Source of the DNA: Folioceros fuciformis
Lineage: Eukaryota
Direction of reading: 5' to 3'
Assembly: GCA_049999805.1 (NCBI GenBank)
Contig: JBNGIO010006268.1
Location: forward strand, 208,724-242,975
DNA length: 34,252 bases
A program made the translations under genes and the position numbers. The number at the start of each line of letters is the position of its first letter. Position 1 is the stretch's first letter. Positions 5,101 through 30,300 of this stretch are shown here, piece by piece. The notes under the pieces were generated by a model, which did not search any database, was not told where the DNA came from, and saw only the letters and a list, made by a program, of their open reading frames with translations.

Positions 5101-7318
5101 GGTTGTCGTGCACGGCTAACGTTGAATGCTTTGATATTATACTTCAATTATAGCCCTAGCAAACCAAAACGCATGTGGGGACCACTCCGACACAACAACG
5201 TCACCAACAAAAAGAAACTTGTTCTTCTTAAATGAGGAAGTCTTTTGGTCAATCCCAACCCGCTGAGAAAGAAATGTTCGCCGTCAAACAAAGTGTATGG
5301 GCGCTCCAAGATGAAGATGAAGGGTAAAGAACCACCCTCCTTGGCCAAGGAAAACATTACATCAACTATAAAGCCCAAGGAGGGGAAGGAAAACATGACA
5401 TCATTAATAAAGCAAGCAAAGATCTATGTAAATAGGCTTTGTAGGCATACTTAGTAGGGTTTCATTGTGAAAACCCAAGGAAGGCAATGATATGAATAAA
5501 TGCCTACATGACTTCGAGGGTCAAGCCTTAGATATTAAGTATTTGCAAAGGCTAAGGACACAATGTCATTTCATCTCGAGGGCCCATATATAAGTAATTT
5601 TATTAAGGGGACACATTGCAGGCCAAAGATAAGTACATATTAAGTGGGGATATTTGGAGGGCCTAGTATAAGTAGGGTTTAGGGTTGAGTTAATTAGTTA
5701 CTTAATTTGGTGGACTCTTACGTATTAGTTGACCAGCAATACCTTAGTAAGGGGTACACCCTAGACTAGGTGTCTTGTGGGTGGTAGGGTAGGCACACTT
5801 CATGCTTTCACCCAAGACAATGTTGTCCTCCCTCTCGGATGGTTTGGCGATGCCGGTTCTACAGAAGAAGAGGAAGAAATCATTTTTCAATTGTTGAAAA
5901 CTAGAAATGAATTTTTAAAGATGATTCCTCTACATTTTAAACTTAAGGCCAACGCGAAGCCCCATCTTGGGCATCAATGGCAATGCGGCCTACATGTAAC
6001 AACTCAGAAAGAGATATATTAATTTTTTTAAAAATCACATTAAATATATAAATATAAACCCTTCGGCCCCTTCCAAATTTAAATTAATAACTAGATGAAA
6101 TCTTTCCATTGGAGATTGTCTTGCTTCAAAAGATCTTGCCTTTCCACAGCTAAGATTTTCTACACTTAATATGCGTAAAAATATATTTATACTTGTATTT
6201 GTATCTATACGGTGTGACCAGCCCCTATATTGATATAAGGATATATTCTTGCAACAGTGCGCACACGATGCCTTCCCTTGGAAACTTCTCCCCCATCAAG
6301 TTTGGTAACGTCAATCTGACTTCATCTTACATCACATCATTGCAATCGTTTTATGCGTGTCGAAACGTATTAATGCAAATTTTGTCGCAAAAAGGCTTTG
6401 ATTCAATTAAACAAAATCTGATCCATGTTTCCTTGATGAAGATCAGGGTGCCCATAAATTAGGATACCGATCTTGGAGAGCCTTTATATCCATCTCTGCC
6501 TTAAACAAAGTTCACTAAAGCTGAGTGAAGGAAGAGCATGTTGTGAAGCATGGGTGTACCTTTATAGACTACCTCGAGCAAGCAACAATGTTTCCCATTG
6601 TTGGACTAGATGTCTCTTACAGCCCGCGTTAGAAGGACTTGCACATTTGATTTGAGGCATTCTAACAGTTGATAGCATGAGAGACCCTTCCTATCACTTT
6701 TGTCTCTACGTAGCAATTGTTATCATGACCTACAACTATTCCAGGGTAAGGCAATTTTGTTTGCCATCTAGGTCAAAGAACACATGGCTTGTATTGACTT
6801 GCGGGCAAGACAATGTGCCCCACAAGAGCACTAGCCTAAATTAAATTTTGTTAGGTTGGTTACCATCATTAGTGTGGCTGTGGAATTCCTTGTTAGGAGT
6901 GACAACATGCCTTTAACAACTAGACGAAACAAAAAGCTCGTCCTAGTAAACAACAATTGGTGTTCAAGAGATGGCTGGCTAGGTGGGATTTCTTTTTATT
7001 GGTGAGTGAGCCTAGGCTGATTGGTGGTGGAGAAGGCAACAATTTGTTTTTCTCCTTAGTCTATGGTACCTCCGTGTAAGCCGTCAATCCACTTAGGTTA
7101 CCTAGCTTCCACTATCACCCTAACAAGCACACCAATAGCAAGCTAATAATATCCATAATGTAGCAAATGATTAAGAAATCATGGAGCAAAAGTGTCATGC
7201 ATGTCCAAGGCAACAACTTGCTAGCAATATAGCATGTACTTAGTGGGGAGACTATTACTGAGTGGGAAGACTATTGGACACTGTGAGTGCATTAAATAAC
7301 ATAGAGGGAAAGGAATCG

Positions 7319-7522
7319 AAACTCTGGTAGTAAGATGTACTTGAAGATGGGGAACATACCTTCATGGTGTTTCTTATGCCTTGCCAAAAGAGCACCTAGA
7401 AGTAAGGAAAGCAGAGTTGAAACTTTGGCAATAAGGTGTACTTGAAGATGGAGAAACATACCTTGATAATGCTAATGCTATCTAAGCCTTGCTTAAAGAG
7501 CACCTAGAAGCAATAAAAAGAG
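7319..7522. repeat. degenerate ~100-bp tandem duplication in AT-rich, probably TE-derived DNA
   Basis: Shared blocks TGTACTTGAAGATGG..AACATACCTT..GCCTTGC..AAAGAGCACCTAGAAG occur twice, ~100 bp apart. Confidence 0.8.
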
Positions 7523-8294
7523 ACACAACCAACAAATTTTGGGCATCTTTGTATTGATGCTGAGTGAGGATAACGTCACATACTTTACAATATCTACTTC
7601 TTTAAAAGTAGTATCACATGGTTTGCTTTCTCATTGTTTCGACCTACCATCATGTATTCCTATGGGCTCATTTAATTGTTTAAAATGTCCGTGGTCAGTG
7701 CCTCTTTTAGATCGACAGCTGACATGCAGATGTCATTTATCTTCACTCAAATGTACATAAATGTATGCATGTACATTTATACCCCCTTTCCAAAATTGTC
7801 CAGAGTTTTATTCTATACTATGTAGGAACGACTTTGATCATCAATTGCTATGGCTACGAACATATGTTGTCTCCACCTTCTGATTTTGTCAGTGTGAAAT
7901 CAGATTGGGTCCGTTTTTTGGACCTAAAATTGTGTTAAATTATCATATTAGTTTATCGTTCTTCTCCTTGTAGCCACAATTTATATGCCCTTAACCATAG
8001 TCGTCAGGAAAAACAGGTGGGTGACGGTGCTTTTGCTAACAACAAGATCCCTTTGCTTTGGATCGACGCGTGTTTAAGTTGACATGGGATAATGGGGGGC
8101 AAAGGGCCAAACGGTGGTCTGTATCTAGGTACAGTAGAGGGCAGGGCCGTACGTAGATTTGTCTAGACCTATGAGAAGGGTAAGGTGGATTAGTAGGGCC
8201 ATGACGCGCCCGTCTTGAGGAACTGAATAAAATCTCGCCCAAAGACGTTAAGGAATTCATGAATACCGGCATATGTAAGTTCCTTGCAGCCATA

Positions 8295-10893
8295 TCACGA
8301 CTCGGCTTCTTTTAGAGCGTGAGGCGCCTCGCTGGGAGCCCTCCAAAGACCCCATAAGATGGTGATATGAGCTGCCAGTAGAGCTAATGATGATGCAATG
8401 CTCGACGGGTAGATGTTCCAGCATAGCTCTACAATTCCAAGCAACGCTAGCCTGAACAGGCAACCAACATTCGGTTCACACTCAGGGATGATAAAGCATC
8501 AAATTCACTGGCTCGTGCTGAAGACTGTATCACTTACCGCACAGGTGTGGGAAAAGGTGCCTTCCAAAGCAGCAGCGGTAAGCTAAAGAAGTACCTGATC
8601 CAAGACGGGATTAAACCAAGTTCATCAGTGCAAGATAGGGAGCAAGGGGAGACTGGGCTGGATTATAGACAACAGCTGGCCAGAGGAAAGGGGTAGAGTA
8701 CCAGCAGTAGAATTGATAATGAAGAGAACGCGCACAGACTATACCGATGAAGTTTCCTGTGAAAAGGACTGTTGCTATATCTGCAGAAACTTGAAGCACA
8801 CATATTAGCATTGAAATAGCATTCAGGTACGTGGGGCAGTCACAGTACATAGAATGACAAGGGGTATGCCAACGTACGATCTGCACTCAGGACTTTCCCT
8901 CTGGTGCTCCATTTTTGCTTCACAGAATCAAACAATCCAACTTGGTTGTCTTTTCTTGGAACATAGAGTGCAGTTGCAGCTACGATGCCACCTTCATGTC
9001 TGAGGAGTTACAGACCTGTAAGGGAGGATGAAGCAGGATTGGGCTTTGAAATTCAGAGTCGGACAAGGCGTGCAACACGTACCGACACCACTTAGCATGT
9101 GCGAAGAGCCACAACAACCCAAGATGTAATAGCAGTAGTAGAACAGCTAGTGGTTTCGACACAAACAGAGGCTCGGGTAAAAATTTGAGATTAACCGACC
9201 TGCATCGAGATTTTTTGTTAGAGAAGAAATGGATTGACTGATATCTGGGACGAAAGGGTGGACATAATTACCAAAAATGAATGAAAACACGACCGAGATT
9301 GAATGCTCTGGATACGTAGGCTAGTGGGGCGTGCAAAAGGAATGGAAACCCTAAAATCGCCTGCATTGCGCATCGAACGCACCACCTCGTCAGTATGGGT
9401 GTCCCCAGAGATTGCATGGTTTAGTATCCTGACAGTTACCTGAACCAGTGCAGCATATGAAAGTGCTGTTACAACTTCTCTCAGTGACAAGGTCTGTGAA
9501 CACGAACGTAAAATTGTGGGTGAGCAGAAACACAAGTAAATTATGACCGCGGCTGTCCCTCAACATCAAGAGGTTCCCAACCACTGACTGACCTTCAGCA
9601 GCAGAAGCAGGAGGGGTGGTGCATAAAGCAACACATTCATCTTCACTGAAACTGCCGCACTGCCCTTTTCACACAACAGACAATGTCGAGCAGTAAGCAC
9701 CTACAAGCAATAGACTGCAGCACTCGCTGATCCTGAATGTCTCGCGGTCGTACACAGGATGAAATCCACAATCTCACCTAGCTAGAGAGAGCACATTACA
9801 TCCTGGAAGGTCACAAGTGTGCTCACCTGAAAACCAGCAGAGCTACATACCAATGTTGCCTTTGCATGATTGCAATGGATGCATGTGCAAGTGTTGTAGC
9901 CACACAGTCATTGAACAGTCGTAGAACGAAGATGGAGTGCACTCTTTTCGATAGGCACAAGAGCAACAAAACCCACCACGGTGCCTGCCAATGTATTTTG
10001 AGCATATTCTGTGAGATCAGAGTGTACTTGGCGCATCGACACATCAAATGCAAAGCAAAGGGATGTCTGTCAGGGATGGCTCACCACTGCAGCCCTGATG
10101 TATATTAGAAGCGTAACTCCAAGATTGACGATGTACAGGGCTCCAAAGAAAATCTGGTAGCAGCATGTACACATGAGCCACCAATCATGGGAAGGACCTT
10201 GGCTGTCAGAGTTCAGGCTATTGACTACCCTCATAGAGAGGGAGAAATGGGACGTCAAGAGCAGACTTAGCTAGTACTCGAGCATTTGAAACGTCACATG
10301 AGACTACAAAGAACGGCAGAGAGAGAGAGAAAGGACCTGCGCAGGGAAGACCGCTGAACCTGTCAGATAATTTATTACAGAGTATATATACAGGAAACCA
10401 GCAGGATAGACAAGAGGACCAGTGTCTCCAGAGATATTCTTGTAATTCCTTTCTCCCGCTAGAAATTGCTCGACCTGAGAAGGAGGACTTGCATTAGAAC
10501 TGACATAATCACTACGAAGATGATCCATCTCACCACCCATTACTAACTGGATACGAGCATGAAAAAGTAGCAGAACGCATCCGGGTGTACAATCAAGGAG
10601 TAGTACCTGTGAGATGTAAGCATCCCAATCTATCTTCGTGTCTGAGATCAAACGACCAAGCAGCAAGAACTGCTGAACAACCCATTCAACCATAGCAAAT
10701 GGGACATTAAACAGCGCTTGGAATACTAGGAGGGATACATACAAGGAACCCTCGCAATTATGAAGCAGACGAGAATGGTGTCCAGAAAGATAGCGGTCAC
10801 GGCGGCTGCAAAATAGAGAGACCTAGTCTGGGGAACAACTTTCCCGTCTCTGTGTCCTTCCCCACCATCTCGAGATTTCCGAATCCGAGCCAT
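8295..10893 (-). CDS. ALG3: Dol-P-Man:Man5GlcNAc2-PP-Dol alpha-1,3-mannosyltransferase (multi-exon)
   Basis: Spliced exons give [115 protein letters not shown] at 10893, TGA at 8295-8297. Confidence 0.95.
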
Positions 10894-11486: not shown

Positions 11487-12028
11487 GATTGTGGCGACGA
11501 GCGGGACGTTCATTTCTCAGTGTCTGAATCTGAAAATCCATCTGCCCTGCTCGGGCTTGTTTTGCTCCAGATTTGAACCAGAGGGATTAATTCATTGTGA
11601 TGCAAACGATGCAGGCCGTGAGGAACGTGATCGTCGTCTGAATCTCAGACCGTGCAAATAGATGCTGGCTTCAGTGTAGTAGGAGCGAAGAGAATTCCTG
11701 CACTGCCTGAACCTGCAATCGCCGGCGGGGTGAAGTCTTGTACCAACGTCGTTGTTCAACATATTTCTTCAAATTTCACGACCTACTAGAATTCTTGTTC
11801 AAGGAGACAATCAAGGCTAATTCAGTGGGGCTTTGCACAAAATGAGATCCGCAACACATCATCCTAAGCTTCTTACTTACTTAAAGGAATGTTTTGTAGG
11901 GCCGAGTTGTGTATTGTGTTGTGGCTTTTGCAGAAAAGTATTAATGACTAATATACATGCATGTATACATATGAAGCTTTCTATATATTGAATTTATAAT
12001 AACAAACAATTAATAAAATATGTATATA

Positions 12029-13293
12029 TAGTCAACCCTCTCTAAATATGATCTCCCTAAATGTTATATCTCTATAAGTGTTATAGGTTTGGGTAAATGT
12101 TATATCTCTATAAGTGTTACAGGTTTGGGTACTCCCTAGTTAAGGAGTAAGGGAGTACTCCTAGTTGGGAGTAAGGGAGTACTCCTAGTTGGGAGTAAGG
12201 GAGTAACGCTAAATGTTATTTTCTATAAATTTTATATGTTATTTGTTTTATGAGAATAGATACTCCCAACCATTATAGTCTAATTCTATAAATTTTAATT
12301 TAATTTTATAATATAAAATTATATATATTATGCTTAAAATAACATAGATAATATAGATATCTAACTTATCCAATCACAATGTGACAAAAAAGAGATGTAT
12401 CGATGTTAAAGAGAAAATCATCAGAAATTAATCGATATTAAAGAAAAAATCATGAGAAATTGATCGATATTAAAGAAAAAATCATGAGAAATTGATCGAT
12501 TTTAAAGAGAAAATCATCAGAAATTGATCGATGTTGAAGAGAATCATCGGAAATTGTTAGAAACACTCTAGTTATGATAAGAAAGAGCAAGTGGTAATCT
12601 GTCGGATATAGACTTGAATAACTTATAGACTTGAATAACTTAGTTTTGAGATATGAAATGTTAACAGTGATGATGAATAACAGTAAGTCAACCAAGCAAC
12701 ATGTGACCCCTATTATGTCTTCACAAGAATTTGTTGATTACGAGGTGACAAATGCATGTGCTATCTTTTCTACTTCAGGTGCAAATGATACTTGGGCTTC
12801 TGTTCAACCTCCACCCTGAAAATAAAGTTGTTGATGTTGAAAATTCTTCTACAGAATATTATCAAGAAAGGCTTATATTATATGCACTTGGGTGATACGT
12901 ATATTTTTGGAGCAACGACCAAATGATACTATGTCTTTAAGAATTTGCAACAAATTGAAAAAGAAGTTTTTTTAGCAGATTAAGTACACTTTGAAACAAG
13001 TAGAAATAATTTTTGAGGTCAATTTGAAGTTTATTTCTTATTTTATTTGTTATAAATTTATAATAATATTAATAAAATTTATTCACATAATATTTATTAA
13101 CATAATATAATATAATAATATCTATATAAAATAAATAATAATCATATATAAAATATATTTCGTAATTTTTATATGTTAAATAAATTTGAATATTTTATTT
13201 TTAATAAATACTTGAATTCTCTAATTGTTACACCTCCCTAAATGTTACCCAATGCCCTACTCCCAACGGGTAACATGTAGGGAGGGTGGACTA
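12029..13293. mobile_element. non-autonomous pogo-like (Tc1/mariner superfamily) DNA transposon
   Basis: Imperfect TIRs TAGTCAACCCTCTCTAAATATG (left) / TAGTCCACCCTCCCTACATGTT (right, reverse complement), flanked by TA on both sides and resembling CAGT..AACCTC pogo-type TIRs. Subterminal CTCCCTAAATGTTA motifs at both ends. AT-rich interior with a degenerate transposase C-terminal remnant (MSSQEFVDYE, FLEQ, KQVEIIF; ~12715-13015). Confidence 0.8.
12058..12560. repeat. internal tandem arrays of the transposon (2x36 bp, 3x24 bp, ~5x31 bp)
   Basis: TAAATGTTATATCTCTATAAGTGTTAYAGGTTTGGG x2 (12058-12129); ACTCCTAGTTGGGAGTAAGGGAGT x3 (12131-12204); AAATCAT(C/G)AGAAATTGATCGATATTAAAGAA-like x~5 (~12398-12560). 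Confidence 0.9.
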
Positions 13294-13513
13294 TATATAC
13301 ATAGATTGTATTATAAGGAATGGAAGTCGAGCAATGGTAACAGACAAACCGGGTTTTCATAAGTCCCTTCCCTTCTTGTACTTCAAAGCTTTCAACCTCC
13401 TTCCTTGTTCCAAGGGGAGCTCGCCTTTCCTTCCTTACTCAAAGACTTTGAGACTCTCCTTTCAATGTGTAGAAGAGAAGTCTCGTACTCATTGTATCAC
13501 TTGTACGATGGTG

Positions 13514-13846
13514 GCAAGCCAAGATTTCCTAGCCCTCATTGTGTGGGCAAGGACAACAAAAGAGACACAAGGAAGCTTTTGCTTTTATTCTTTGTGAGTA
13601 CAATAGAAGAGACACGAGAATGACTGCAAAGCCAAGATTTGTTAGTCCGCACTATGGTGGCGAGGACAACAAAAAGAGAGACAAGGAAGCGTTTGCTTTC
13701 ATTCTTTGTGAGTACAACACAAGAGACACGAGAATGACTGCAAGCTAAGATTTCCTAGCCCTCGCTACCTGATGAGGATAACAAAAGAGACTCAAGGAAA
13801 CCTTGGTTTTTGTTCATGGTGAGTACAATATAAGAGACATGAGAAA
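13514..13846. repeat. ~113-bp tandem repeat, 3 diverged copies
   Basis: GCAAGCCAAGATTT...GGACAACAAAAGAGA..CAAGGAAGC..TTTGTGAGTACAA..AAGAGACACGAGAATGACT repeated three times. Confidence 0.9.
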
Positions 13847-14424
13847 GCTTTCGTTCAAGACTAATACTCATGAAAGCATCTTGGATGCGAGGAAGAACAA
13901 CAACAAAATGAAGGCGAGTAGCATGTTTTCCTCACCTCTCATGATTGTTATAAGCTTGTGTTTCATTATGCTAGCGCTAACCATGCAACCTCTCACAACA
14001 ACTCCTAATTGTTAGATCTATTTCACAATGTTCTTTTGGCAGTATGTAGGTTTCCATTACCCTTTGAAGAAAAGGGCACTTGGAGTTGTTGTTGGCTTGT
14101 ATTGAATCACACCATCAAACTCCATGGACCAAGATCTATTGCACAATGCTCTTTTGGTAGTAGGGTTCCATTGTCCTTAGGAGAACACTTGGTGTAGCCC
14201 TAATTCGCACAATTTGCAACATGCGTTCATAATAAACCATGGGTTCATTGCCCCACTAATGGCTTGGATGTCCCTTCAGCAATACATAGTAAGTATATGG
14301 TGCCCCTTGTCAAGTCATTTCCAGGATGGCTGGAAGTGGTACGCAGGGGACCGACAATTGCCTGGACGTGGTATGAACGTACGTGACCGAGCTCCCACAA
14401 TCTCCTGGGCGTGGTCTCATATCC

Positions 14425-14842
14425 ATGACCGAGCTCTGTCAATCCCATCGTGTGCCGGACGAGAGACTTGGTAACGACGTGGACGTGGTACCGGCCCGAC
14501 ATCCCGATCCAGGCCGGCATCTTGGACGTCCAGGTAAACCACACACTTTTCTCTCCACTGAGTCTTCTCTCTGCGCCCCCTCCCGAAGGCTCCAAGTTAC
14601 GGAGAGTAACAGAACAGCGAAAGAAACGGAGGGGCGAGGTACAAGGCAAGAAAGTGTGCACAACCGGTGAGCCGGTGGCGGCAACCGGCTCAGCACCAGA
14701 GTACTGCTCGCTGGGCTCCTCGTATTGGCTCAAACTGCGTAATTTTTTTTGTTGTTTATGCTCCTCGCGGCAAGGCAAGGCCTGGGTCCGGGAAAGAGTC
14801 CGGGTCCGGGCTGTGGGTGATGAGAGGCCCAGCGTGCTGTGA
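14425..14842 (+). CDS. possible small basic spliced ORF (84 aa) or spliced leader/uORF of the downstream gene
   Basis: Exons 14425-14533, 14589-14666, 14775-14842 with donors GTAAAC and GTGAGC are phase-consistent. Contains RRVTEQRKKRRG (NLS-like). The first intron is only 55 nt and no homology is recognised. Confidence 0.25.
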
Positions 14843-15189
14843 GGCATCCACTCAGCCGCTGAGAGCCCAGCCCAGCCCGGACGAGGCAGATGGCCGCACA
14901 CGCAAACCGTGTTCGAAAGGGGTGAATGATACCCTAGGCGATGCTGCCAGTCCCGCCTGCTCCGCATTGGCCCAGCTCCTGCTGCAATCGCCGCTCCCCG
15001 CCATCTTCCCGCCATCGCAGCACAAGGATGAGCATCAAGCCCGCTTCTTGCTGCCCTTGCAGCATCTGAGGCCCTGGAGGTAATACAAGAAGGTCGCATT
15101 AGAGTCTTGGAGGCACGGCCAATCCGCGCTGGCGGCATCGCACTGTCTGCATTATTGCCCGGAGCAGCGCGCAGGGCAGCGGAGCAGAG

Positions 15190-18100
15190 ATGAGGGAGGA
15201 GCACCGAGGCCGGATGGAAGCTGTGGTGCGATCGCTGCAAGATGCGGACTGGAATTTCTCCAAGGCCTCCATCACCTGGACAGTGCGGAACCTCCTGGAT
15301 GTGCGTAGCGGCTGCTTGTGTTGGTGATGTGATGTCGGGTGGAGTGGGAGTGGATGATATGCTCGTTTTGTGATGCAGATATACGGGCCTAAGGCTGGCT
15401 GGAGTTATATTGAGGAGAACAACTACCAGATTGTGGTTGATTGCATCACGTCTGACAAGAAGTTGAAGCAGGTATGTGGTCAAGGTTGGGGAGTGGTCGG
15501 CAGGGTAGCGGGTGAGGGTGGTGCGTCGTGCTTAGAGGGAGCAGCGGAGGCAGGATCTGCGAGCCCCGGCTTGTGCTGCCCCCTATTGTCCCTAAGGGCT
15601 ATAACAATTTTGTGTTGACCAAGGAAGCTTCTTCCAAGGAGTTTGAATATATGTATGTATGAGCGTTTTTTATGTTGATCAGAACAAGTATCAAATGAGA
15701 TCTGGTCGAGATGGGAAGGCGGCAAATGGCCCACATGGCAGCAGAGCCCTACTGCGTGGTGCTGAAAAGGCGGCGGCAACTCTTGTGCCGTCTCAGATGG
15801 AGGAGACAGTTTTCTGCGGCTCGCCGAATGAAGGCCACTCTCCTGATTCTCCGGATATACGTTGCCATCAGAGGCACCTGTGGTCGGTCAGGTGTGGCTT
15901 GCCTAACCTGCCCTGCTTCTGGGAGCCGTATGAGGGGGAGCAGCCAGTGCTGGATGTGACTGAGGCCGAGCCGGGGCCTGGGCCTGAGCTAGGGAGTGAC
16001 GGCGACTATACGGGAAAGTCGGGTGGCGATGGGGACGCCTCCTGCGGGAGGCTTCCTGACTCTGCTGCTGAGAAAAGCGATGACAACGGTGTCCATCACA
16101 CCTCCACGAAGTCGTTTGAAGCTGGGTTCCAGGTGAAGGTTCGGGGCAAAAGATCCCGTCCATCTCTTGGAAAGGATATATTCAAGCAGACTGATGATGT
16201 TAGTGCACTGGGTTCTCCCCCTTTGGCTCAGCCAACTTGTGGGACAGAGCCCAGCAATGAAGGTTCCAGGTCTGTGGGCGAAAACCCGTCACCGAGTGTT
16301 GTGTCCAATGAAAGCGTCCACGAAGCTGGGGTTCCGACAGCTGGAGCTCCTGGACGGGCTGACATTATTGGCCAGGTTGGTCCTGACTTGCAACCTCGTC
16401 TGGACTCAATGAAGCGGTCACTCGGTTTAGCTGAAGCCCAAGCAATGCCAGAAGGAATGCTTTCCGAGGACAATGAGCTGCAGCTTGCTAGCAAGAGAAG
16501 AAAAGCAGGTGAGAACGGGCTTGGGATGCTGAGAAAAATCCGGGGCTGTACCACAGCAAGGGGTGCTATCGTGCCCCATGGTGCAAATGGAACAAGTGCC
16601 AAAGGCTTCAGCACACGAACTCATTTGGCTGAACCTACAGAGAATGCAGCAGATTTTAAAACAGACATCAGCCCAAATGTGGAGAATGTAACAGGTTCCG
16701 TCTGGCGCAATGATGCTGGACTGCAGGATGAAGGCAGCGCCCGGACCCTTGTCGGCGTGTCGAACAACACTCTAGCTTCGGTGCCACTAAGAACCGAACA
16801 GAAGTCTGTGAAACTGGCTGCACAGGAGGCACAGTTATGTAAACCCGAGCCAGTGAGGCAGGAACGTATCCCACTCCCTCCTGGACCAAAGGTTCAAACA
16901 CTAGACAGTTCGAAACCGTCATCTCTCTGCCCTCTAGACCCCGTCGAACCCAAGCCCCTATTTGACGAAAAGAAGGAATCAGGTGATCAGGGTGCGGTTC
17001 CTCTACAATCTCCCCGTCTTCCTCCTGGATTTGAGGGGAAGTTTACTTGTACGGTGTCACAAGAAGATTCATCGCTAGGCAGGAAGCTTGCTTGTGTGAA
17101 AGGATCAGAGAATGGTCCTCAGGTTTCTGCAAAGAGAGCTTCCTCTGGTGATGCGGTTGTGCAGACTACTGCATGTTCCTCTAATGGTAAAGAGCAGCTG
17201 CATAAAGATGGCTCACAGACAGATTCGGATGATGTTCCTGCGTCAGCGAGAGCACAGAACAGCCTTCCAGATTGTGCAGCACAGGCAACAGGTAGCTGTG
17301 AAGCCTATCCTGCCTCGCAGGGTGTCTCCCCACGAACGCCAAATGCCATACCAACCTGGCCAGCGACCTGGCTTCCTCCAGATTCCTCAGGTTCCCCATC
17401 TCTTTCATCTTGTAGCATCCTATCTTCTGCCCATCGACTGGGATGTTTGCTTGCTGAATCTCGGTGTCCATGCCAGGAAGCCATCCTCAACTTTCAGCTT
17501 CCAAAGCGGGCAATTCCACAAAAAATACCCTTCCTCCTACTCCGAACTGCCCTGGAGTGTGCCACCCTCCTATTGTATCAGGTACTGATACTTCCGATCT
17601 TTTTCGAGTCTTCCTGTCGCTGCTCTGCATCACGACCACCAATTTCTTTTTGTTCTATGTGAGCAGGGCCTCTATCAACTACCGATCCAGAATTGCCTCC
17701 TCTGACGGGTCCGATTCCACCGTCGTTGACTGGAACGTTAAGAGGAATGCTGTCTGGGAGCCCAACTCCTAACGTTTCACCTCTTGACCATGGCGAGAAT
17801 GTGAATGTCGTATGTCCACCTGCTACTGCCTGCCCTGGTCTCTCAGCTCCTGCTGGTCCCTCTTCTTCTGGTGCTTGTGCTTTCACTCCTGTGGGTGGCA
17901 CAACCCCATCACCTCGAAAGCAGAGTGTGGCTCAACCATCTCATATGAGTGTGGGTAAGCAGAAGGTACCTGAAAGCTCGTCAGCTAGCACACCTGTCGC
18001 GGTTGAAGTGCATGGGAACGTACCTGGACGTGCAGTTCTCATCGACGGGAGAGGAGCAGGGTCTTCGGGAGATATTGTTACCGGCAGTGGCATGTCGTCG

Positions 18101-21100
18101 CACTTGGCTGATCCAATAAGGTCTGTCTACCTGGGAAAAATTCCCAAGGGACTAAAGGATATCGAGGCGTCTGTAAGAGAGGTTGTGCGCGCGTTATTAA
18201 ACTCCTTCGAATTTGTCCCGCAGAAGATTGCTCGTCTGGAAGAGTTCTATCTACGCGAGAGGCCCACTTGGAATTTCGGGTTTGTCGAATTTTCTACACC
18301 GAAGGTGGCTATGGTTTTCCTTGATGCTTGTCAAGCTGATCCAGGCGCATTACCTTTGAATGGGGGTTACTTGAAGGTAGGAAGGAACAACCAGGATCTC
18401 AGTGGTGACACCTTACAGCGGAACAAGCTTTTCCCTCAAACTAGAGACCGGGACCTGGATCCTGTGAAGGTCATTTATGTCGGCAATGTTACCCCAAAGT
18501 GGCAAGACGAGACGGCCCTGAGACGCTATTTCTCGAACATTTTGAAGGGCTCAGATGAACACTTGAATAGCGACCTTGTGCGAGCAGTCTATCTCCTTCC
18601 TTCGCAATCTGACGCGTATCTCGAGCTTTTCTCAGAGCATTTGGCGGATTCTTTGATTTACAAGTGCATGAAGGATCCGAAGCTACTGGAGGTATTGGGT
18701 GAAAACACATTCTTCTGTCGTCATCCTAAATGGGTTCCACTATGTGCTGCGCGATTTGTGCGAAGGCGGCGTTCTGCTCCGCACAGTATATTCCTTCGGG
18801 AGATTGTACCGGTCAAGGAATTTTGTGACCAAAGTACTCTCCATTTGGCTCAGCTTCCCATTAAAGGTGACGGCTATTACTTCAGGCAAAGGCTCCAGGA
18901 TTTGTTTGAAGCAGTTCTACGAACTTTGAGTATAGAAAAAAAGATTCATGGAAGCATCAGGAACTTTTCTTGGCCTCCCGGAAAACCCTTCGCTTATATC
19001 GACTTTGATTCAGAGGAGGTAGCGGACGCCATAATGGACCAGTACATTGACAAAGTGCAGAGCTTTTGTGTAAAAGACATGTCACTTCTTATCTTTAGGC
19101 ACCAGAAGTATATTCGTCCTGGTGCAATATATAGGCATTCCGCAAGAAATGTTGATCCAGTTTCTGGAAGAGCTTTTGAAGATGACCTCGAGAGGAGGGC
19201 AGGTGTTTTTGAGGACGTTGAGCACGGGTCTGAAGTAGACACTGGTCCATCTGATTCTGCTGGCAGGAAGGCGCTCAAATCGGAGAAAACCAATTCCCCG
19301 AGCGTTTCGGGCTCTCTGATGGGGCCAAACGATTGTGCCAGTAGCACTCTTCACTCAAATTTCTTCAGGGAAATGAAGCGCTCGCAACTGGAGGGACCCA
19401 AAAGGCTGACTTTGAAAGGATTGGCCCGAGGGGCATTTGAGCCTGCACTAAGAGGAGCTCTGAATGAGTTGTTTGAGAGAGCCCTGTGCGAGTCCGGTGT
19501 GCTGGAGCCTGAAATGCAAGTTGTAAGGAGCGTAACACTTGGGTCTGAGCCATATGTGACGGTCAGTGGGTCTGACGTGGCTCGAGCCCTTCTGCAATGC
19601 CGTATGCCACTCAAGCTGGGAGGAGAAAGGCTGACTCTTCATCCCTTGAAAATTGAGAGTCGAGGTCAAACAGCTTTGGATGCCCATAAGAAAATTCCAA
19701 GTTTTGAGCAGGGTGGACCTCAGGGTCCATCGGATCCCACCTCTATGAGACCACGCTGGGTATCTCCTAGAGCCAGCGGACAGTTGGCACCTCTGCTTGG
19801 TGGTTGGGGTGCAGAGCCTTGGGGCCGACCGTCCCACAGATTTGGACCACCAGTCGCTCCAGACGCCTCGTTTCCTAGAGGTATGGGGCCTCCCCCGCCA
19901 CCATATCCTCCAGACTGTGGCAGGCCCGCTGCACCAAGGGTTCCTCCATTTTGCTCACCGCCACCAGGGTATTCAGATCCACCTGGAGGGCTTTTAGTGC
20001 CGCCTTGGAGGCCAGGACCTCATCCTACATGGCATTACGAAGGCAGTCCTGAGCACGTAGGTCATCAAAGTACTAATTCTGAAGCACTCAGAGGTCAAGA
20101 AACTAAGTCCTCAGATGCCGAATTTGCTGGGGTTCCCCCACATAACAGGAGGAGAAGTTCTTTGGAGGGACGGCTCGAGTCTGACGATTCTAGACAGAAG
20201 AAGCCTCGAATACAAGACAGCACAGAAGTTGTAGTGGACAAGAGCATTGGTGGTTGGTTGGAGGCGGAGGAGGATGATGAGGACGGAAAGCCTTTGCCAT
20301 CTAATTTATTGCAAGATAAGGATCCTGGAATCCCAGAAGATACCGCCCAGCATCTTCAAGTTTCCATCGGAGATGTAGGTGCCATGCGACGCAACTCCGG
20401 TGAAACCAAGAAAGCTTCAAGTCAACAGGGAAGCTTGGTATGTGGAGCTGGGGTGGTTGACTGCGACAGGGACCGCGAGGGGGATCCAGGGTTTGCTGTA
20501 AACGAGCTAGAAGACAAATTGCTGACCAGAACTTTTGTCACAACAAGCGGATGTCACCCGGGGGTGAAGTTGGACTCTGATGATAAGAAGCATGCAAGAC
20601 AGCCTGGCCAAGGAGGACCTGGCCTTCCTGGAGCCGAGCCGAATTCTGTAGTCCAGCTTGAATGCATTAAGGATGAAGACATGAAGCTAAAACCGGCCTT
20701 AAAGGACGCTCCCTGTACCGTGGATTCAGCATGCAGGAATAGCCCGCCTCGTCAACGTGATGTACTGCAGTTTGATCTGAACGAGATAATGGTCGAAAGT
20801 CCTGATGGGCCAACCCCAGTCCGCGATGAGTGTGTGGAGCCACCTGGCAGCCTGCCCAACAAGAAGGGCACCAGTCACCAGTCTGGCAGAGACGCAGACT
20901 TGGAGCACAAACGACCTTCTTCAGCAGAGAAAGGAACATCTAAACAGCAGTCTCTTGACTACAAGAGAAGAGATGATGAATCACCATCTCGCTGGTCACC
21001 ATCGAGGGACAGCCGACGGAGTCACACTTGGCACCGTGATGACAGAAGGTCCGACCGAAGTGATACTGACCACCCGCGGAGGACCTTTGATGAGCCCAGG

Positions 21101-21343
21101 CTCTACAGGAAGAGTAGTAGGCATGACTCCGATGATCGAAGACCAAAGCACAGTTCTCTTCACAGGTCCAGTACCATGCCTCGACCCAGCTCTAGTCTTT
21201 GGCCAGATGTCAGAATCTCAGACGAAGACAGGCAACAGTTTAGAGACGCCAGGAGCGTAGACGAGGACAGACACTTATACAGACGAAACCGCAGCTTTGA
21301 TGAGGTGAGAGATGCTCGCAGGCGTTACCGTCCCGAAAGATAA
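15190..21343 (+). CDS. large (~1897 aa) protein: N-terminal WIYLD domain, long disordered region, four U2AF65-like RRMs, Pro-rich segment, RS/RD-rich C-terminus
   Basis: Exons 15190-15300, 15379-15471, 15683-17390, 17477-17581, 17667-21343 (all GT-AG, phase-consistent, 5694 nt) join ORFs 15659..17662 and 17693..21343. N-terminus RMEAVVRSLQDADWNFSKASITWTVRNLLDIYGPKAGWSYIEENNYQIVVDCI fits the WIYLD pattern. RRM-like units at ~18118, ~18466, ~18832, ~19400 (e.g. SVYLGKIP..NFGFVEF; VIYVGNV; LHLAQLP..KPFAYIDF). Confidence 0.82.
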
Positions 21344-21615
21344 CGTTGGTTTTCTCACACTTTCCACATCTGTGTCTGAAGTGCACTTCAGGTCTGGTTC
21401 GGTCCTGTACACCAGCCGTTAAACACGTCTCCTCCCACTCCACGATTTGAATTCGCGAACGGGAGTGACAAGCGCGGGCCCGCCACCGTTAATATTAAAA
21501 CTGAAGCTTCCCCTTTGCAATCCGATGAGCCCCTGAGTGGTAGTAACATACAGTATGAAGCAGCGAAGCCCCGAAGCGACGCCGACAGGAAGATGAATTT
21601 CTGAATCGTTTCAGA

Positions 21616-24600
21616 ATGATGCAGAAGGAGCGATGGCGGGAGCTTGTGCTTGTGGTGCTAGGCGTGTTGTTGCACGCTGTGTACATGCTCAGCATTTTCG
21701 ACATTTATTTCAAGACGCCCATCGTTCATGGAATGGATCCAGTGACGCCCAACATCAGGCCACCTGCCAAGCGGTTGGTGCTATTTATCGGTGGGATTCT
21801 GCACCTTCGCAGGCCAACTCTAAAGGTTGTGAGGTAAGGGAATGGCTAACCAGGACTGGTGTGCTGCAGCTGATGGAATGAGGGCCGATAAGTTCTTCGA
21901 GCTAGACCCTTATGGCAAACCTAGAGCCCCATTTCTGCACGAAGTTATGCATAAATATGGGCGGTGGGGTGTGTCTCATGCTCGGCCACCCACTGAGTCA
22001 AGGCCTGGGCATGTTGCCATTATTGCGGGATTTTATGAAGATCCTAGTGCGGTAACGAAAGGTGGGTTGTGCTGGGTTAGGGTTGCTCACTGTCCTTATG
22101 TTTGTAAGGTATGTAGCTCAGTCCTCACTGGTTCTTGTATGAATAGGCTGGAAGGCCAACCCTGTGGAATTTGATTCGGTGTTCAACAGAAGCAGATACA
22201 CTGTAGCTTTTGGGAGCCCAGACATAGTTCCCATTTTTGTGGCGGGTCTGAAGCACTCTCATTGGAAGTCTTATCCATCCGAGTTTGAAGACTTTGCTAC
22301 AGGTGTGTGACTGAATGCCAGGAAGCACGCTCTGTCCACTGGAGCTGCCTCCAGCTATTGTGCGTGAAAGTATGCTACAAGGCTGACCGGCTATCATCAG
22401 CAACTGAAACCAAGTGTTTGTCTGATCTGTTAGATGCATCATTTCTGGATGAGTGGTCGTTTTCTCACCTCAAAGAGTTTCTGGAGATATCAGTGGACGA
22501 CCACACCCTCCGCCACATGTTGGAGCCGCAAGGGAGCATTGCCTTTCTGCATCTCCTGGGATGTGATACAAATGGCCATGCGCATCGCCCTTATTCGAAC
22601 ATATACTTGAACAACATTGAAATTGTTGACAGAGGTGTGAAGATGATCTATGCGCTGATGGAGGAGCACTTCAAGGATAAGGGGACGGCATACGTGTTCA
22701 CTGCAGATCATGGAATGAGCAATAAAGGTTATGCATTGTTTTCTTACTGGCTGCATGGAGTTGATTACCTTCCATGGATTGGAGATAACATGCATCTTGG
22801 CCCCTTCTTATCAGCATCAATGCTTCTCGTTGCTCTCTTCTTTGTAGGCAGCCATGGTGATGGAGATCCAGCTTGCACGGAGACTCCCCTTGTGGCTTGG
22901 GGATCTGGGATTCGAGTCCCTAGCCCAGCCAGTCCAGAAGATAATGCAGATGATGGACTGAAGTTTGTGGATGAGCACAGTCACAATCTGGAGACTCCCC
23001 TGGGTTGGGGACTCGAGAAGCTGGAACGCCTCGATGTAAATCAAGCTGATATTGCTCCTTTGATGGTCAGTCCCCTCACTTAAGTGATGGCCTAGTTTTG
23101 TAGTGTCCTTGTGTTTTTTCATTTCGAAGACATTCTGTGAAGTAAGTATCCACTGACGTAAGCCTGTGGCTGTAATACATGTTGGGGCAGTCTGCCCTTC
23201 TGGGTCTGCCTTCTCCCATGAACTCGGTTGGCACGTTGCCTGTGGAGTACCTGAATTTGGATAAGGTTTGTTATGGTGCTATCGTGAACCAACCTAGTAG
23301 GCTTTTCTCATGGGAATTGGTTATTTGTTGTGGGAACTGATGCAGGAAAATCTTGTATGCAGGAAGATCTGGCACGAGCAGCACTGGCTAATTCAAAGCA
23401 GATATTGAACCAGTTTCTTCGTAAATCTCGTATCCATGGCTGGGTTTGTCTTTTAGATTGTTTATCAGTGTTACTCTCGCTGAACAGTCTGCCAGGTGCA
23501 TCGCTCGCATGTCCATCTTAACCGATAGTTTGATATGGAAGCAGAGCTTAAGCAGTCAACTTCTTTATTCTTCAAGCCTTATTCCCGACTTTCAAATCAT
23601 CATTCGATTGTTCATGAGATCGAAAATCTCATCTTTCATCATGAAGTTAATGCTGCCATGGAAGCAATCCAAGAATTAAACAGGAACGCTCTGGCGGGCA
23701 TCCATTATTTCCAGACATATGATTGGCTGTTCCTTATGGCTATAATCACGGCTGGATATCTTGGGTGGATGGTGTACATTGGGCTTCATGTTCTCTGGAG
23801 CTATACCTCCATGGTGCAGTTTCGAGTCAGCAAAGGCTGGATGCGTGCCACCAAAACTACTAGACAGCGAGTGAGCACTTTGGAAGCCAGACTTTGAGCA
23901 GTTGTGCTTGCTTCAATCATTGTCTTGCATGTTAACTTGACTGATGCAGCCTTACACTGACTGACATGATCACAGGTTCGTGCTGGCGGTGTAATGCTGC
24001 TGGTGATGAGCACCATTTTCTTGGTGATAGAAAGAGCCCCTCTGCTCTATCATATATACCTTGCATTAGCGCTTTTCCTCTGGACAGAAGTGTTGGGAGA
24101 TACAAGTACATTGCGAGCCTTGTGGAATTCAGTGTGTAGAGCAAACATTTACGATATGGTGAAAGTTGCCTGTGCAACCTTGTTATCAGTATTTCTTTTA
24201 GAGCTTCTGGTAATGTGCTCGAAGCATCTCATATTTTCTTGCAGTATCGTAGTGCCGGAATGGACATTGGCTGACGTCTAGTCTGTCATTTATTTCGATA
24301 AGTTGTCTCACGTGTGGTCAAATTTATGCTTGGAAGGTGACGAGCTTCTTCAGTAGAGAAATCTACACGGGAATTTTTGCAGTGGCAGGGGTAGTTGGTG
24401 CGGTGGTGGTTTCCTGTAACACTCCAGGGATTTCTATGGTGCCAGCATACGTGTGGGCCAGCTGTTGGCTTCTGGCTGGGTTTACTCTAATGCCGGCACA
24501 TATTCCCGATAACACAGTCCTTGTGTAAGTATGAGAGCTGTTTCTTCTCATTTAACAACAAACCCTGAAGGCCCAGAGAAGCTGGGTCGAATAGGTTGAC

Positions 24601-26340: not shown

Positions 26341-27317
26341 CTGTCGCCTTAAAGTGACCTGTTTGCAGTGCGCCAGCCTTTTTTTGTTCATGCCGTCGCC
26401 TGTTTTTTCGCACGCGGACCGCTATTTAGATTTGGTCTCTAAAAGAAAATTTCCCATTATAAACTTGGAACAATTCTTCGAAGAGTCCTGGAACGATGCT
26501 TAGCTGGGTCCTCAATGGAAAGGATGTCCTCTTTCCTAAATCACTAGAAATGGCATGGCACGAGCTTGCTGTTACGTACCGAGTTCCCACGACCCAAAGA
26601 AGGCCGTCCTGGACTTACATATAACTCTTCTCCTGGAGAGCTTCTACCTCACGGCGCGCTTCCCGTGGTCCTGCCTGCTTGTGCTTTCAGTCACTCGTAT
26701 AACTAAATGCTGTGGTACTACTACATACTTTCGTTGTTCCCATCGCATCTGGCTGTCCATGCACAACTGGAGTTACAAGAACCCGCTCCGGGTTGCCATC
26801 TGAACCAAGCAGTCTTGCAATAGGCCAACACCTGAGTAAAGCTCAAGACGCGGGATAAGAGCGACATCATCCGCGTTCATTGATTCCTCACGATGCTTAT
26901 CAAAGGCGTCCTCAGCAAAGATCCTGATTGCACTGGAAGAGACGTAGGTAGACATGTTCCGCAGCGCATTCGTCGGGATCAATTGCAATGCTCAGTGATG
27001 GCTGCGCTGTTCCGAGCTTTCTGAGACACGCGCTCATACGGACCTGATCTGCAATGAGACCATTGAAAACGACGTGCACAACAGTGAACATGAAGTAGAA
27101 TCCTCCGCAGACGAGTTCCGACATAAGCTTGTCTCTGCTACCCCTACATAGGGGTAAAGTCGTGCATCCAACAGATCCCGTTCTTCCCTCACCTCTGCCG
27201 CTGCTGCTGTAGCCAACTACAGTAGCTTGAGGTACCGAAGAGCAGACGGTGTCCCCACCCGGCAGGCATTGTGCGGTTACAAGCTGTAAAACGTTTGCAA
27301 GTACGGCACTTCCTTCT

Positions 27318-30300
27318 TCAAATGGCCCCTTCATCTGGGAAGCTGGTACTCATTGCAGTGAATTTCTGCTGGAAGCTTTGATTACAGTAGGCGCCGAAAG
27401 CCTCTGCGGGCATCAGCCCTTGGCAAACATTACAGAAATCTGCTATCAGCTCTGCAACCATCCAAGCACAATAGTCTGTAAAATGAAACTTGGGTGCAGA
27501 GAAACACCCATATTGTTGCATGACCGGGGTGAACACACCTTGAAACCGCTTCCTTGGGTGCAGAGGTTGACAGACAGCAGCGTCGATGAACATTTTCTTA
27601 TCTGCCTCTGTCAGCAAACCAGGTCTGACAGAGAAGTCTATGGACATTAAAGTAATCGACATAGCTGCCCTGGTGGCCACGCTGTATCGGGAGCACAGGG
27701 CATAGAGAACCATAGCTACAGCCTCCCTTAGCTGGGGGATAGTGGGACTGCTAGCCAGAGACGACAACACTACCTGCACCCACCGGCTTCATCATTTCAT
27801 CAGTACTAAGGCAAAAGCTTGAAAAGTCATGTCAAACCATTCCACTACACTTACGTCCACCACTGAACTCCCACACAAGCTAAGAACTTGGTCGACATGA
27901 GGTATTAGCTCTTGTGGTAATCGCCACACAGTTCTGTCCTTCATGTCTTCTTCACTGAAGGTTGAGCAGCAGATCACATCTGCTAGGAAATCAGCAGCTC
28001 CAAGGGCTGGTCCCAGCTCCTTCCGTTTAATACAACCTAGTCAATAAGCAAAGAAAATGCAAGGTTGTCACAAGGGCTCGGCTGAAAAGGAGCTCATTAG
28101 ACGGTCAGCAGATGTCTACCATCATAGGTTCACTTTCAAAGTAGTTCCTCTCCCCTTTAGGAGAGCCACCACACTAACCGATTGAGCACTGGACAATTTG
28201 AGAAAAACCAGGCGATGGCACGAACAAAACAGGCTGGTTGTGAAGAAGGGTTCTTCCCAGACGACAGACAGCCCCGAGAACATCTCCGGCATTTTCTTGC
28301 CATTTTGCCTTCTCCTTCTGGTGAGGGCCTACATGGGTTGAATTTCCCGAGCCTCTGTCCATATGTGTAGCTTCCAGTATTCCTTCAAATCCTGGAATGG
28401 CCGTTGTGATATCCAGTAGCATGGATGAGAGCGAGTGTGCAATATCCTGTTGATCAGATACCAACCCCTTTGAGCTTAGGGCAACTACCTGGAGACAGAT
28501 AAAAGCAAACAACCGTCATTTCCCAACGAGAAACCTTCTGCTTTTCCGGAAACGGAAGCTAGAAATGAGCTTTTAGAAACTTACTTCACTCAAGCACTGG
28601 AGACAAACAGGACGCAGATGCTGCTTGAACATAGCTGTGGCCCTTGCGATTATGTCAGGGATCCAGCCAGCAAGCAGCGTACCTACTTTTCTTGCTAGAA
28701 TCGCCCAAAGCTCACACAAGCTGCTGGCCACTTCAGAGTCTGCTGCCCAATTCGTTGCCACTGAGTCCAACACCGACCAGATGTCTTGCAATACTGGGAG
28801 AATTTCTCGCAAGGCACTCTCGTTTGCCCCACAGTCCAGGACAGCAGAAAATACTCTGACTTCACAAGAAATAGCCTTTCCAGTGGCCTCTGTCCTCTCC
28901 TAAAAATTCAAAAGAGCTTCCATGAGAATGTCAATACCAGCCCAATCTATGTACAACTAATACTGATGCCAACGGAATACCATGAAAATAAGAAAAAAGC
29001 ACACAGTGTCAAGGGGATAAGCACCTGTGACACTGATAACGTCCTCAGGGTAACAGCTGCAGAAGCTGTGAGGCGAGCAAATGCTGGTCGGCTTTCTGCA
29101 GGGGGAAGTGCAGCTGCAACAATTGCAAGCGCTTGAACCATCGCTAAGCGTTCACCTGCCTCAATATCCATTGATAACCCAGCCGCTTCACATTCTGACA
29201 TAAGAGGTGCAAGTGCCTGAGCTGCTGCGATGTGTGGGGCAGCAGCTTTACAGATTTCCCTCAGAGCGTCGCAAGCTTGTCTCCTAGCTGCACGACATAA
29301 GGCATGGAAGTAGCGCCATGAACTGCTTGCCTTCACATTGATGACTGCTACAATTATTAACTAAGGATACATACCATCCTTAACGAACAGGGCCCCAAGG
29401 GAATACTGGACCGCTATTCCTAACAGATTTGAGTCCAAAGCGGCCCAATCTGCATATCGTCCAAGTGCAGTGACAGCCGTCTCAACCATTCGTCCATGTG
29501 ACAAACTCTTTTTATCTGGCCAGAACACCATATTCAAGAGTTAACAAGCATCACCATCTTCACTCGCTTTCCCAGAAATTACTGGGAAGCATCTGAAGTA
29601 GGGTAAGAATATTGCCTTTGGGAGGTGGCATACCCTTGGTGGTGACAGCTCCCCTTCCTGGCATCTGACGTATGACTGTGTGTACAAACGAATTCACAGT
29701 AACTGTCTTGTCAGGGAGTTTCATTTCTGATCGAAGCTGATCTCTTAAAGCAGCAGCAGTGAAAACACACACTTCGGCAATCTGCCATGTGTCTGCCAGG
29801 TGAAGCTTCTCCAAGATAAACTGGAGGAAGACAGCTCCCATTTCTCGATACAATGAGGTCAGCACCTCTTCAGCAAAGCTGTCACGAAACCTGATGTGTA
29901 CACACAGACACAGCAGTTGAGTAACAGCTTCATATTCCAGCTTGAGGCATGACGATAAACAAAGGCAGTAAAACCTTACCGATGGAAACTGTCTTCGTCA
30001 GTCTCAGAAACCTCCCAGCTTTCAAAATCTGCTGGATACATGGTGACCTGCATAACAGCCTGGGTATTGTTCTATGTTACTAGCATGCTTTGCATTATAG
30101 GTCACTATCATAACTAGCACAAATTTAAGCACATTAGCTCAAACCAGACAACATGGCACCTGGGCAGCACTGGCAAAAAGTGGTATCTGGAGAAATTCTG
30201 CACGTCTAGCTGCAGGGACTGGCACAAGTCGTGGCCAGGCATTGACAACCCTCGTAGCACATTCTACCCCCAGACCCCCTCCTCCTCCAGAGGCATCGAC

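Follow-up and report, generated by a model that had tools for sequence, protein, structure and literature searches.

The window analysed here is a 34,252-nucleotide (nt) stretch of DNA from Folioceros fuciformis (contig JBNGIO010006268.1), and all coordinates given are positions within it. Bases 15190-21343 of the forward strand probably form one gene, encoding a protein of about 1900 amino acids (aa) that is headed by a WIYLD domain, carries several RNA recognition motifs (RRMs), and has a proposed RNA-binding and adaptor mechanism. Read from its sequence, the product is very probably a single long protein that binds RNA in the nucleus and has WIYLD at its N-terminus. The predicted layout is a three-helix WIYLD domain, a linker of about 750 aa that is disordered and contains a few short conserved motifs, three adjacent RRMs, a fourth RRM, a proline-rich (Pro-rich) region, and a tail rich in arginine, serine, and aspartate (R/S/D). 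The putative gene belongs to a WIYLD-headed four-RRM protein family of non-seed plants, which is present in databases without a name or a study. The finding is a domain architecture in an unstudied family, and the mechanism is a proposal only.

The predicted gene is composed of five exons (15190-15300, 15379-15471, 15683-17390, 17477-17581, and 17667-21343), which join into 5694 nt. The earlier note on this DNA had described a single frame of about 1897 aa connected by four phase-consistent GT-AG introns. This was reproduced as 1897 codons and a terminal stop, uninterrupted by any other stop codon, and the predicted introns of 78, 211, 86, and 85 nt begin with GT and end with AG in 4/4 cases. 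Exon 1 (model aa 1-37) contributes the N-terminal half of WIYLD and begins at 15190 with the start codon, the first in-frame ATG after the stop codon at 15100-15102. Intron 1 (15301-15378) interrupts the domain in phase 0, runs from GTGCGT to TGCAG, and contains in-frame stops. Exon 2 supplies the C-terminal half (model aa 38-68), and intron 2 (15472-15682), also of phase 0, connects WIYLD with the long third exon; it has the donor CAG/GTATGT, a pyrimidine-rich acceptor (...TTTTTTATGTTGATCAG before the exon), and stops in all three frames. Exon 3 encodes a long low-complexity linker rich in serine, glycine, proline, and alanine, for which a Pfam scan gave no match. The last exon holds a lead-in rich in proline and serine, four units of RRM fold, the Pro-rich region, an acidic stretch 3' of the RRM region, the R/S/D-rich tail, and the stop codon. 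When the small exons were scored by codon usage against the long ones, no useful signal emerged; exon 1 did best in a wrong frame, the low complexity of the training set (the long exons) being the reason. Among the sequencing runs listed as containing the window, none is recorded as RNA, and one of uncertain kind contains 0.96 of the sampled words.

The WIYLD domain proposed in the earlier note appears to be real. In scans of the individual exons against Pfam WIYLD (PF10440; 61 profile positions, gathering score 27 bits), exon 2 (31 aa) matched profile positions 36-57 of 61 with E 7.6e-5 and 22.9 bits, a score below the cut-off from an exon that covers only the last third of the profile. No WIYLD match was obtained with exon 1 (37 aa) alone; its Pfam match to DinB_2 (E 0.013) was taken as chance, and among PDB sequences it gave only weak helical-repeat matches. 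The signature of the C-terminal half (W, I, Y, L, D) is present in the window as W45, I48, Y53, V56, and D58, with valine at the L position. These residues stand opposite W81, I84, Y89, L92, and D94 of chain A of 2lxe, the structure of the SUVR4 WIYLD domain, which is the sole PDB sequence match of exon 2 (E 0.55). Two relatives pass the Pfam threshold. P0041 (CAK9220416.1, an NCBI model of Sphagnum jensenii) scores 29.5 bits, and P0051, a continuous 978-aa open reading frame (ORF) on a 3.4-kb contig, scores 42.5 bits (E 5.7e-11). Model aa 7-67 align with P0051 residues 18-76 without a gap across the junction of exons 1 and 2 (E 8e-7).

A three-helix fold of the SUVR4 type is predicted for the WIYLD of P0051, the relative that was modelled in place of the window protein. 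The single-sequence AlphaFold model of its aa 1-100 contains helices at 14-28, 34-48, 50-59, and 63-81, with a predicted local distance difference test score (pLDDT) of about 83 there. Foldseek returned no match to this model at E<=0.001. Compared by VIA with 48,161 chains, the model found 2lxe at the top (Z 8.4, root-mean-square deviation (rmsd) 5.6 A over 75 aa), followed by the ubiquitin-binding SOUBA domain of UBAP1 (Z 6.0) and, lower, by UBA and RuvA domain III. By VIA's own note a Z of 8 is modest for a helical bundle; 2lxe is nevertheless 2.4 Z clear of the second match and is the match expected.

The second half of the architecture is provided by the RRMs. The AlphaFold model of 531 residues (window 18086-19678, 22-row alignment, mean pLDDT 76) has four confident strand-helix-strand-strand-helix-strand units at model residues 13-100, 129-212, 251-337, and 440-520, with pLDDT mostly 82-97 in these blocks. 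Their motifs can be set against the RNP1 and RNP2 consensus of ribonucleoprotein (RNP) domains. Unit 1 (18122-18385, model aa 825-912, pLDDT 85-94) shows the full beta-alpha-beta-beta-alpha-beta order, has an RNP2-like SVYLGKIP and an RNP1-like NFGFVEF, and superposes by VIA on PTBP1 RRM1 with Z 11.0 and rmsd 2.0 A over 78 aa. Unit 2 (18470-18721, model aa 941-1024, pLDDT 82-97) has an RNP2-like VIYVGNV and DAYLEL in its third strand, and ends in the family motif FFCRHPKWVPL, its C211 and P218 being nearly invariant in the family. Unit 3 (18836-19096, model aa 1063-1149, pLDDT about 79-96) has LHLAQ and an RNP1-like KPFAYIDF and ends in FRHQKYIRPGAIY; its Y342 and P345 hardly vary in the family, and R344 is identical throughout the 7-sequence alignment. 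VIA reaches units 2 and 3 only through tandem matches, for example to nucleolin and Hsh49. Unit 4 (19403-19645, model aa 1252-1332, pLDDT 87-95) has degenerate RNP motifs and a strongly conserved helix GALNELFERAL, superposes on U2AF65 RRM1 (5w0g) with Z 10.3 and rmsd 2.3 A over 81 aa, and is kept in P0041 and in another relative, P0001.

The four RRM-like units of the earlier note are thus borne out at the level of predicted fold, since the AlphaFold units match RRM structures in both Foldseek and VIA. Foldseek gave 158 PDB matches at E<=1e-3, and all those listed are RRM proteins. The leading ones, at E 6e-9 to 1e-5, are Prp24 (6e-9), raver1, U2AF65 (3e-7), SHARP, and SFPQ/NONO. Likewise, the ESM Atlas returned only RRM-type clusters, with scores <0.9 that serve as leads only. 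The threshold of Pfam RRM_1 (PF00076, gathering score 20.7 bits) is not reached in the window, where the match is 16.8 bits (E 0.0065) at aa 427-458 of exon 5, in unit 3; P0001 passes with 23.2 bits, and the metagenome locus L001 gives 17.9 bits. A phmmer search of PDB sequences with the RRM region found only antibody and response-regulator chains at chance level, and no RRM protein, U2AF65 included.

Neither the description of these RRMs as 'U2AF65-like' nor a role in 3' splice-site recognition is specifically supported, because the units fit a wide range of RRM proteins to the same degree. In Foldseek, U2AF65 comes after Prp24 and raver1, and in VIA dozens of other RRMs, including those of PTBP1, nucleolin, U1A, SFPQ, and U2AF65, tie within 1 Z. 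The layout of U2AF65 itself, with an N-terminal arginine/serine (RS) region, a U2AF ligand motif (ULM), and a C-terminal U2AF homology motif (UHM), is unlike that of the window protein. What the protein shares with Prp24, raver1, U2AF65, SHARP/Spen, SFPQ/NONO, and PTBP1 is tandem RRM folds and RNP-type residues in units 1-3, and an Arg/Ser-rich region is common to it and many splicing factors. It differs from these solved multi-RRM proteins in the number and order of domains, in the family strand motifs, and in the N-terminal WIYLD; there is no specific sequence similarity, and no single family is prominent by fold.

It is very likely, judging from the Sphagnum models, the P0051 ORF, and the exon order, strand, and intron position in metagenome loci, that the WIYLD and RRM parts belong to one gene, as the earlier note had it. 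P0041 is colinear with the window model. Residues 23-77 of the model align with P0041 23-91 (WIYLD, E 2e-5), 799-1162 with 377-731 (RRM units 1-3, E 1e-38), and 1253-1441 with 749-913 (unit 4 and the Pro-rich region, E 1e-9). The same two parts are joined in models of S. troendelagicum (P0039), S. balticum (P0046), and S. compactum (P0048), whose WIYLD scores are 20-22 bits. P0051 carries WIYLD at 20-75, a linker, and RRM units 1-2 at 729-952. The Sphagnum proteins and P0051 thus have WIYLD, a long linker, and the same RRM module in the same order as the window, together with the motifs CRHP..VPL and RH.KY.RPGA.Y and the helix GALNELFERA, and the Sphagnum proteins further share the Pro-rich end and the intron inside WIYLD at the same codon. 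They differ from the window protein in being half as long (926-978 aa) at an identity of about 28-30%; Sphagnum unit 1 has degenerate RNP motifs, and the long R/S/D tail is not seen in P0041.

Metagenome sequences offer a further view of the exon order. A locus scan with the 7-sequence family alignment found nine loci, and in 6/9 the WIYLD exons lie on the same strand 5' of the RRM match at a distance of 2.3-4.2 kb, namely about 3.7-4.2 kb in L001 and L002 and about 2.3 kb in the Sphagnum-type loci L004-L007. L001 and L002 are 99.95% identical, and hence the six WIYLD-bearing loci count as two lineages. The WIYLD exons were not found in L003, where 2.7 kb of upstream sequence is present, in L009, with only about 2.0 kb upstream, or in L008, whose sequence starts 3' of WIYLD (P0041 maps to it from residue 78 at nt 59). 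Exon 1 is 42% identical to L001 5824-5931 and exon 2 is 48% identical to L001 6261-6353. The intron falls at the homologous codon within WIYLD in L001 and in the Sphagnum-type loci. For example, exon 1 of L001 ends in RNLLN before the donor GTGCGA and exon 2 starts with VYG, the corresponding features of the window being RNLLD, GTGCGT, and IYG. Three Sphagnum models (P0039 and P0048 among these) have a 37-aa insertion exactly at the point of intron 1. The L001 equivalent of intron 2 has a phase-0 donor GTAAGA and an in-frame acceptor at 6810, and the linker ORF that follows has 671 codons.

These data also bear on the reading that two genes lie here, a stand-alone WIYLD protein (e.g. of 117 aa if the frame continues to the stop at 15616-15618) and a separate RRM protein starting at the ATG at 15695 or downstream, in a conserved neighbourhood. 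The junctions in the window are predicted from sequence, an in-frame methionine stands 5 codons into exon 3, one model of the Sphagnum cluster (P0008) begins downstream of WIYLD, and relatives in ferns and Selaginella are without the domain. The original description, in its accessible text, records WIYLD proteins without other known domains (PMC1636477). Two separate genes are nevertheless very unlikely. Both parts stand in a single ORF in P0051 and are joined in four Sphagnum models, and their order and strand are kept in two further lineages. The exon 2 donor and exon 3 acceptor are good and phase-compatible in both the window and L001. Moreover, a terminator and a promoter would have to fit into the 77 nt between the read-through stop and the ATG at 15695, where there is no space for them.

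The two long ORFs, of 671 and 1226 codons counted from stop to stop, contain exon 3 and the last exon, respectively. They are in the same frame and are parted by a single TGA at 17660-17662, which is located just 5' of a pyrimidine tract and a CAG acceptor. The gene model bridges the region 17391-17666 with introns at 17391-17476 and 17582-17666 around the 105-nt exon 4 (17477-17581), and the acceptor at 17666 is preceded by a strong pyrimidine tract. For the same region 71 single-intron GT-AG options, skipping of exon 4 included, would keep the frame, so the five-exon version of the 3' end of exon 3 and of these junctions is one predicted in-frame option among many. The choice among them affects no domain. 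The TGA is most likely intronic. Its interpretation as a recoded stop was dropped, there being no support for it and an acceptor site following directly.

The same TGA could be read as a nonsense mutation or an error in a decaying or mis-assembled gene. That the long ORFs share one frame and are parted by one stop would fit such an explanation, as would the lack in the window of the CCCH zinc finger (zf-CCCH) that P0001 and L001 carry between units 3 and 4, its loss then being part of the decay. This account is scarcely credible when set against frames that have stayed open for 671 and 1226 codons, a stop placed just before an acceptor, domains that fold confidently, and family-invariant residues that are kept. 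In addition, the orthologous region of L001 likewise requires introns, its ORFs being in different frames.

The relatives of the RRM region form a small family. When 1.84 billion cluster representatives were searched exhaustively with HMMER, 18 clusters emerged at E<=1e-3, 10 of them at E<=1e-30. Taxon names are attached to 10/18 clusters, and all are non-seed land plants (moss, lycophyte, and ferns): Selaginella with five clusters, Adiantum with two, and Sphagnum, Pteridium, and Ceratopteris. When 28 family proteins were scanned against Pfam, WIYLD was found in 0/18 cluster representatives and in five longer members from 2 clusters, namely the four Sphagnum proteins and P0051. The full-length fern proteins P0002, P0003, P0005, P0007, and P0034 and the Selaginella proteins showed no WIYLD at E<=0.1. 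Similarly, phmmer with the first 68 aa of the model gave no match among the 18 representatives, since WIYLD occurs in cluster members other than the representatives. Among 8000 candidates scored in a homologue search with the RRM region, only P0001 matched; the last exon is 39% identical to it over 353 aa (E 6e-78). Searches with P0041 residues 1-90 and with the family alignment, the latter restricted to proteins of 2969-5000 aa, gave no match and have no bearing on absence. On sequence evidence, this is a small uncharacterised multi-RRM family with WIYLD attached in the window, in Sphagnum, and in the organisms of L001/L002 and of P0051, and the domain composition and order appear conserved across at least four lineages. 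Two members have unusual partners. In P0011, which comes from Logan, RRM units 1-2 are followed by an AP2 domain (40.6 bits). P0033, an Adiantum nelumboides model, has gag and protease domains of a retrotransposon at its N-terminus and resembles a chimeric gene model.

P0001 and L001/L002 are the closest relatives, with 37-39% identity to the window across RRM units 1-3. P0001 also has unit 4 and an R/S-rich tail, and L001 shares both WIYLD exons and has a long linker exon homologous to that of the window. They differ from the window in the zinc finger between RRM 3 and RRM 4, which lies at aa 508-532 of P0001 (20.5 bits) and at aa 592-616 of the L001 ORF 9563-11650 (32.9 bits). At about 19270-19400 of the window there is no zf-CCCH match and no visible Cys/His pattern.

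The regions outside the folded domains are conserved in part. A block at aa 47-110 of exon 3 (nt 15821-16012; SPDSPDI.HQR.LWS...P.L.CF) is shared with L001 at E 3e-10. Its counterpart there (6810-8816, aa 48-106) has the same offset from the proposed acceptor, and outside the block the linker cannot be aligned between the two; the block has no Pfam match. The linker also contains the motif SPRLPPGF (nt 17009-17032, model aa 511-518), a form of SP.LPPGF, for which about 0.04 occurrences are expected by composition in the window protein. SP.LPPGF recurs 5' of the RRMs once each in L001, P0002, P0016, and P0018, three times in P0012/P0051, and six times in P0015. Motifs of the PPG-hydrophobic type are ligands of GYF domains.

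The compositional claims of the earlier note agree with the counts. The Pro-rich region (19655-20059, model aa 1336-1470) is 26% proline, has PPxY at aa 1416 and 1438, and can be aligned with the C-termini of P0001 and P0041, which are likewise Pro-rich. The tail of 167 aa, together with the stop, occupies 20840-21343 (model aa 1731-1897) and is composed of R 21%, S 17%, and D 14%, with 10 RS/SR and 11 arginine/aspartate (RD/DR) dipeptides. It is a mixed RS/RD tail, unlike the classical RS repeat of SR proteins, and a comparable tail rich in R, S, E, and D is present in P0001. A Pfam scan of the translations of exons 1, 2, 3, and 5 found neither SET nor Pre-SET at E<=1, which is in keeping with the absence of a pre-SET/SET domain stated before. 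Arabidopsis SUVR1, SUVR2, and SUVR4 resemble the window protein in the N-terminal WIYLD, the W-I-Y-L/V-D signature, and plant origin, and the SUVR4 domain (2lxe) is the best structural match for the WIYLD of the family. The difference is that SUVR proteins have pre-SET/SET where the window protein has four RRMs.

The proposed mechanism follows from this layout. The protein would act in the nucleus and bind RNA, with units 1-3, which keep aromatics of the RNP1/RNP2 type, making the contacts. The Pro-rich region and the R/S/D tail may engage the RNA-processing machinery. By analogy with SUVR4, WIYLD could serve as a UBA-like adaptor for ubiquitin, for a ubiquitylated chromatin protein, or for another partner, and would in this way couple the handling of RNA to signals from chromatin or ubiquitin. 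According to the accessible text of one report, the SUVR4 WIYLD binds ubiquitin and requires D74 for it, and point mutants of the SUVR2 WIYLD, including the D74 equivalent, keep their silencing function (PMC4260354). Residue D94 of the 2lxe chain would correspond to native D74 if a 20-residue tag is assumed, an offset that agrees with the domain limits of 21-77 in the original description (PMC1636477). The aligned column holds D in the window, D in Sphagnum, N in L001, and E in P0051. Binding of ubiquitin by the window WIYLD is, on this analogy, a tentative suggestion that is somewhat more apt to fail than to hold.

The variable column also feeds a different reading, in which there is one gene and its WIYLD serves for protein-protein contact or dimerisation, or adopts a UBA-like fold that binds some other ligand, in a lineage-specific RNA-processing factor. 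Besides the D, D, N, E series, this would account for the functional SUVR2 mutants as far as they are described in the source (PMC4260354) and for the fern and lycophyte relatives that manage without WIYLD, and dimerisation or targeting was proposed in the original description, as far as its text goes (PMC1636477). The retention of W, I, Y, V, and D in the window speaks for the ubiquitin side, and so does the ranking of solved folds, in which the SUVR4 WIYLD, a ubiquitin binder, comes closest and the SOUBA and UBA domains, which bind ubiquitin too, come after it. A docking role of this kind is a possibility of some weight, short of an even chance. A bolder proposal is that the WIYLD-4xRRM proteins are old land-plant readers, which dock on ubiquitin or ubiquitylated chromatin while the tandem RRMs, with CCCH in some, hold nascent RNA. 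This is unlikely. If true, it would mean that a ubiquitin mark is coupled physically and directly to RNA processing or to RNA-guided silencing. The proteins would then be an RNA-side counterpart of the WIYLD-SET methyltransferases that was lost or replaced in seed plants, and WIYLD would be a portable module and not a SUVR appendage.

Several points weigh against the reading of one gene for a WIYLD-headed RNA-binding adaptor. The four junctions are predictions, and for the two that lie between the long ORFs there are many other in-frame choices. The WIYLD match of the window lies under the Pfam cut-off, with exon 1 alone unmatched. As for the relatives, the Sphagnum proteins are automatic gene models, and the P0051 contig is taken to be an mRNA from its size and its uninterrupted WIYLD. 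The fusion is not family-wide, as the fern and Selaginella relatives and 0/18 representatives make plain. Unit 4 has degenerate RNP motifs, as does unit 1 in Sphagnum and Selaginella. Finally, ubiquitin binding may not be the conserved role, because the Asp column varies and the SUVR2 mutants are functional.

In the accessible text of four papers, WIYLD is placed in SUVR proteins (PMC9828519, PMC5725981, PMC4260354, PMC1636477), and the 2006 description, to the same extent, has it only in proteins with SET or without other known domains (PMC1636477). No description of the WIYLD-RRM architecture was found in the searchable literature, a scope outside which subscription-only papers and supplements fall. 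The papers that name WIYLD together with RRM or RNA recognition motif are, by title, surveys of histone modifiers; in one of them, as far as its text was available, 'RRM' refers to the demethylase domain RRM_DME (PMC9828519). The architecture had been called unrecognised, and this stands as regards published description; as regards novelty it does not, since the architecture is present as unnamed Sphagnum entries in public protein sets and thus is not unique to this genome. Pfam misses the RRM part in most members, and domain tables would therefore show WIYLD-only proteins. The domain known as a SUVR appendage appears to head a conserved four-RRM protein in several non-seed plants. This provides a second architecture for asking what WIYLD binds, and a candidate, open to experiment, for the coupling of RNA handling in bryophytes to ubiquitin or chromatin signals.

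The window is eukaryotic in character, with short GT-AG introns. A 428-codon antisense frame (14245-15531, minus strand) spans exons 1-2 and a GC-rich region upstream; its low-complexity translation suggests a chance ORF. Just 5' of the gene lies an AT-rich stretch (12001-14000) with a GC content of 0.29-0.35 against about 0.5 around it. The neighbours on both sides look like housekeeping genes, an assignment made by eye from known motifs. Those on the minus strand are presumably a CAF1/POP2-type deadenylase (4390-5115), an ALG3-type mannosyltransferase (10304-10822), and an importin/transportin-like protein (about 27000-32000). On the plus strand, 21559-23900 is taken to encode a PIG-N-type glycosylphosphatidylinositol (GPI) ethanolamine-phosphate transferase.

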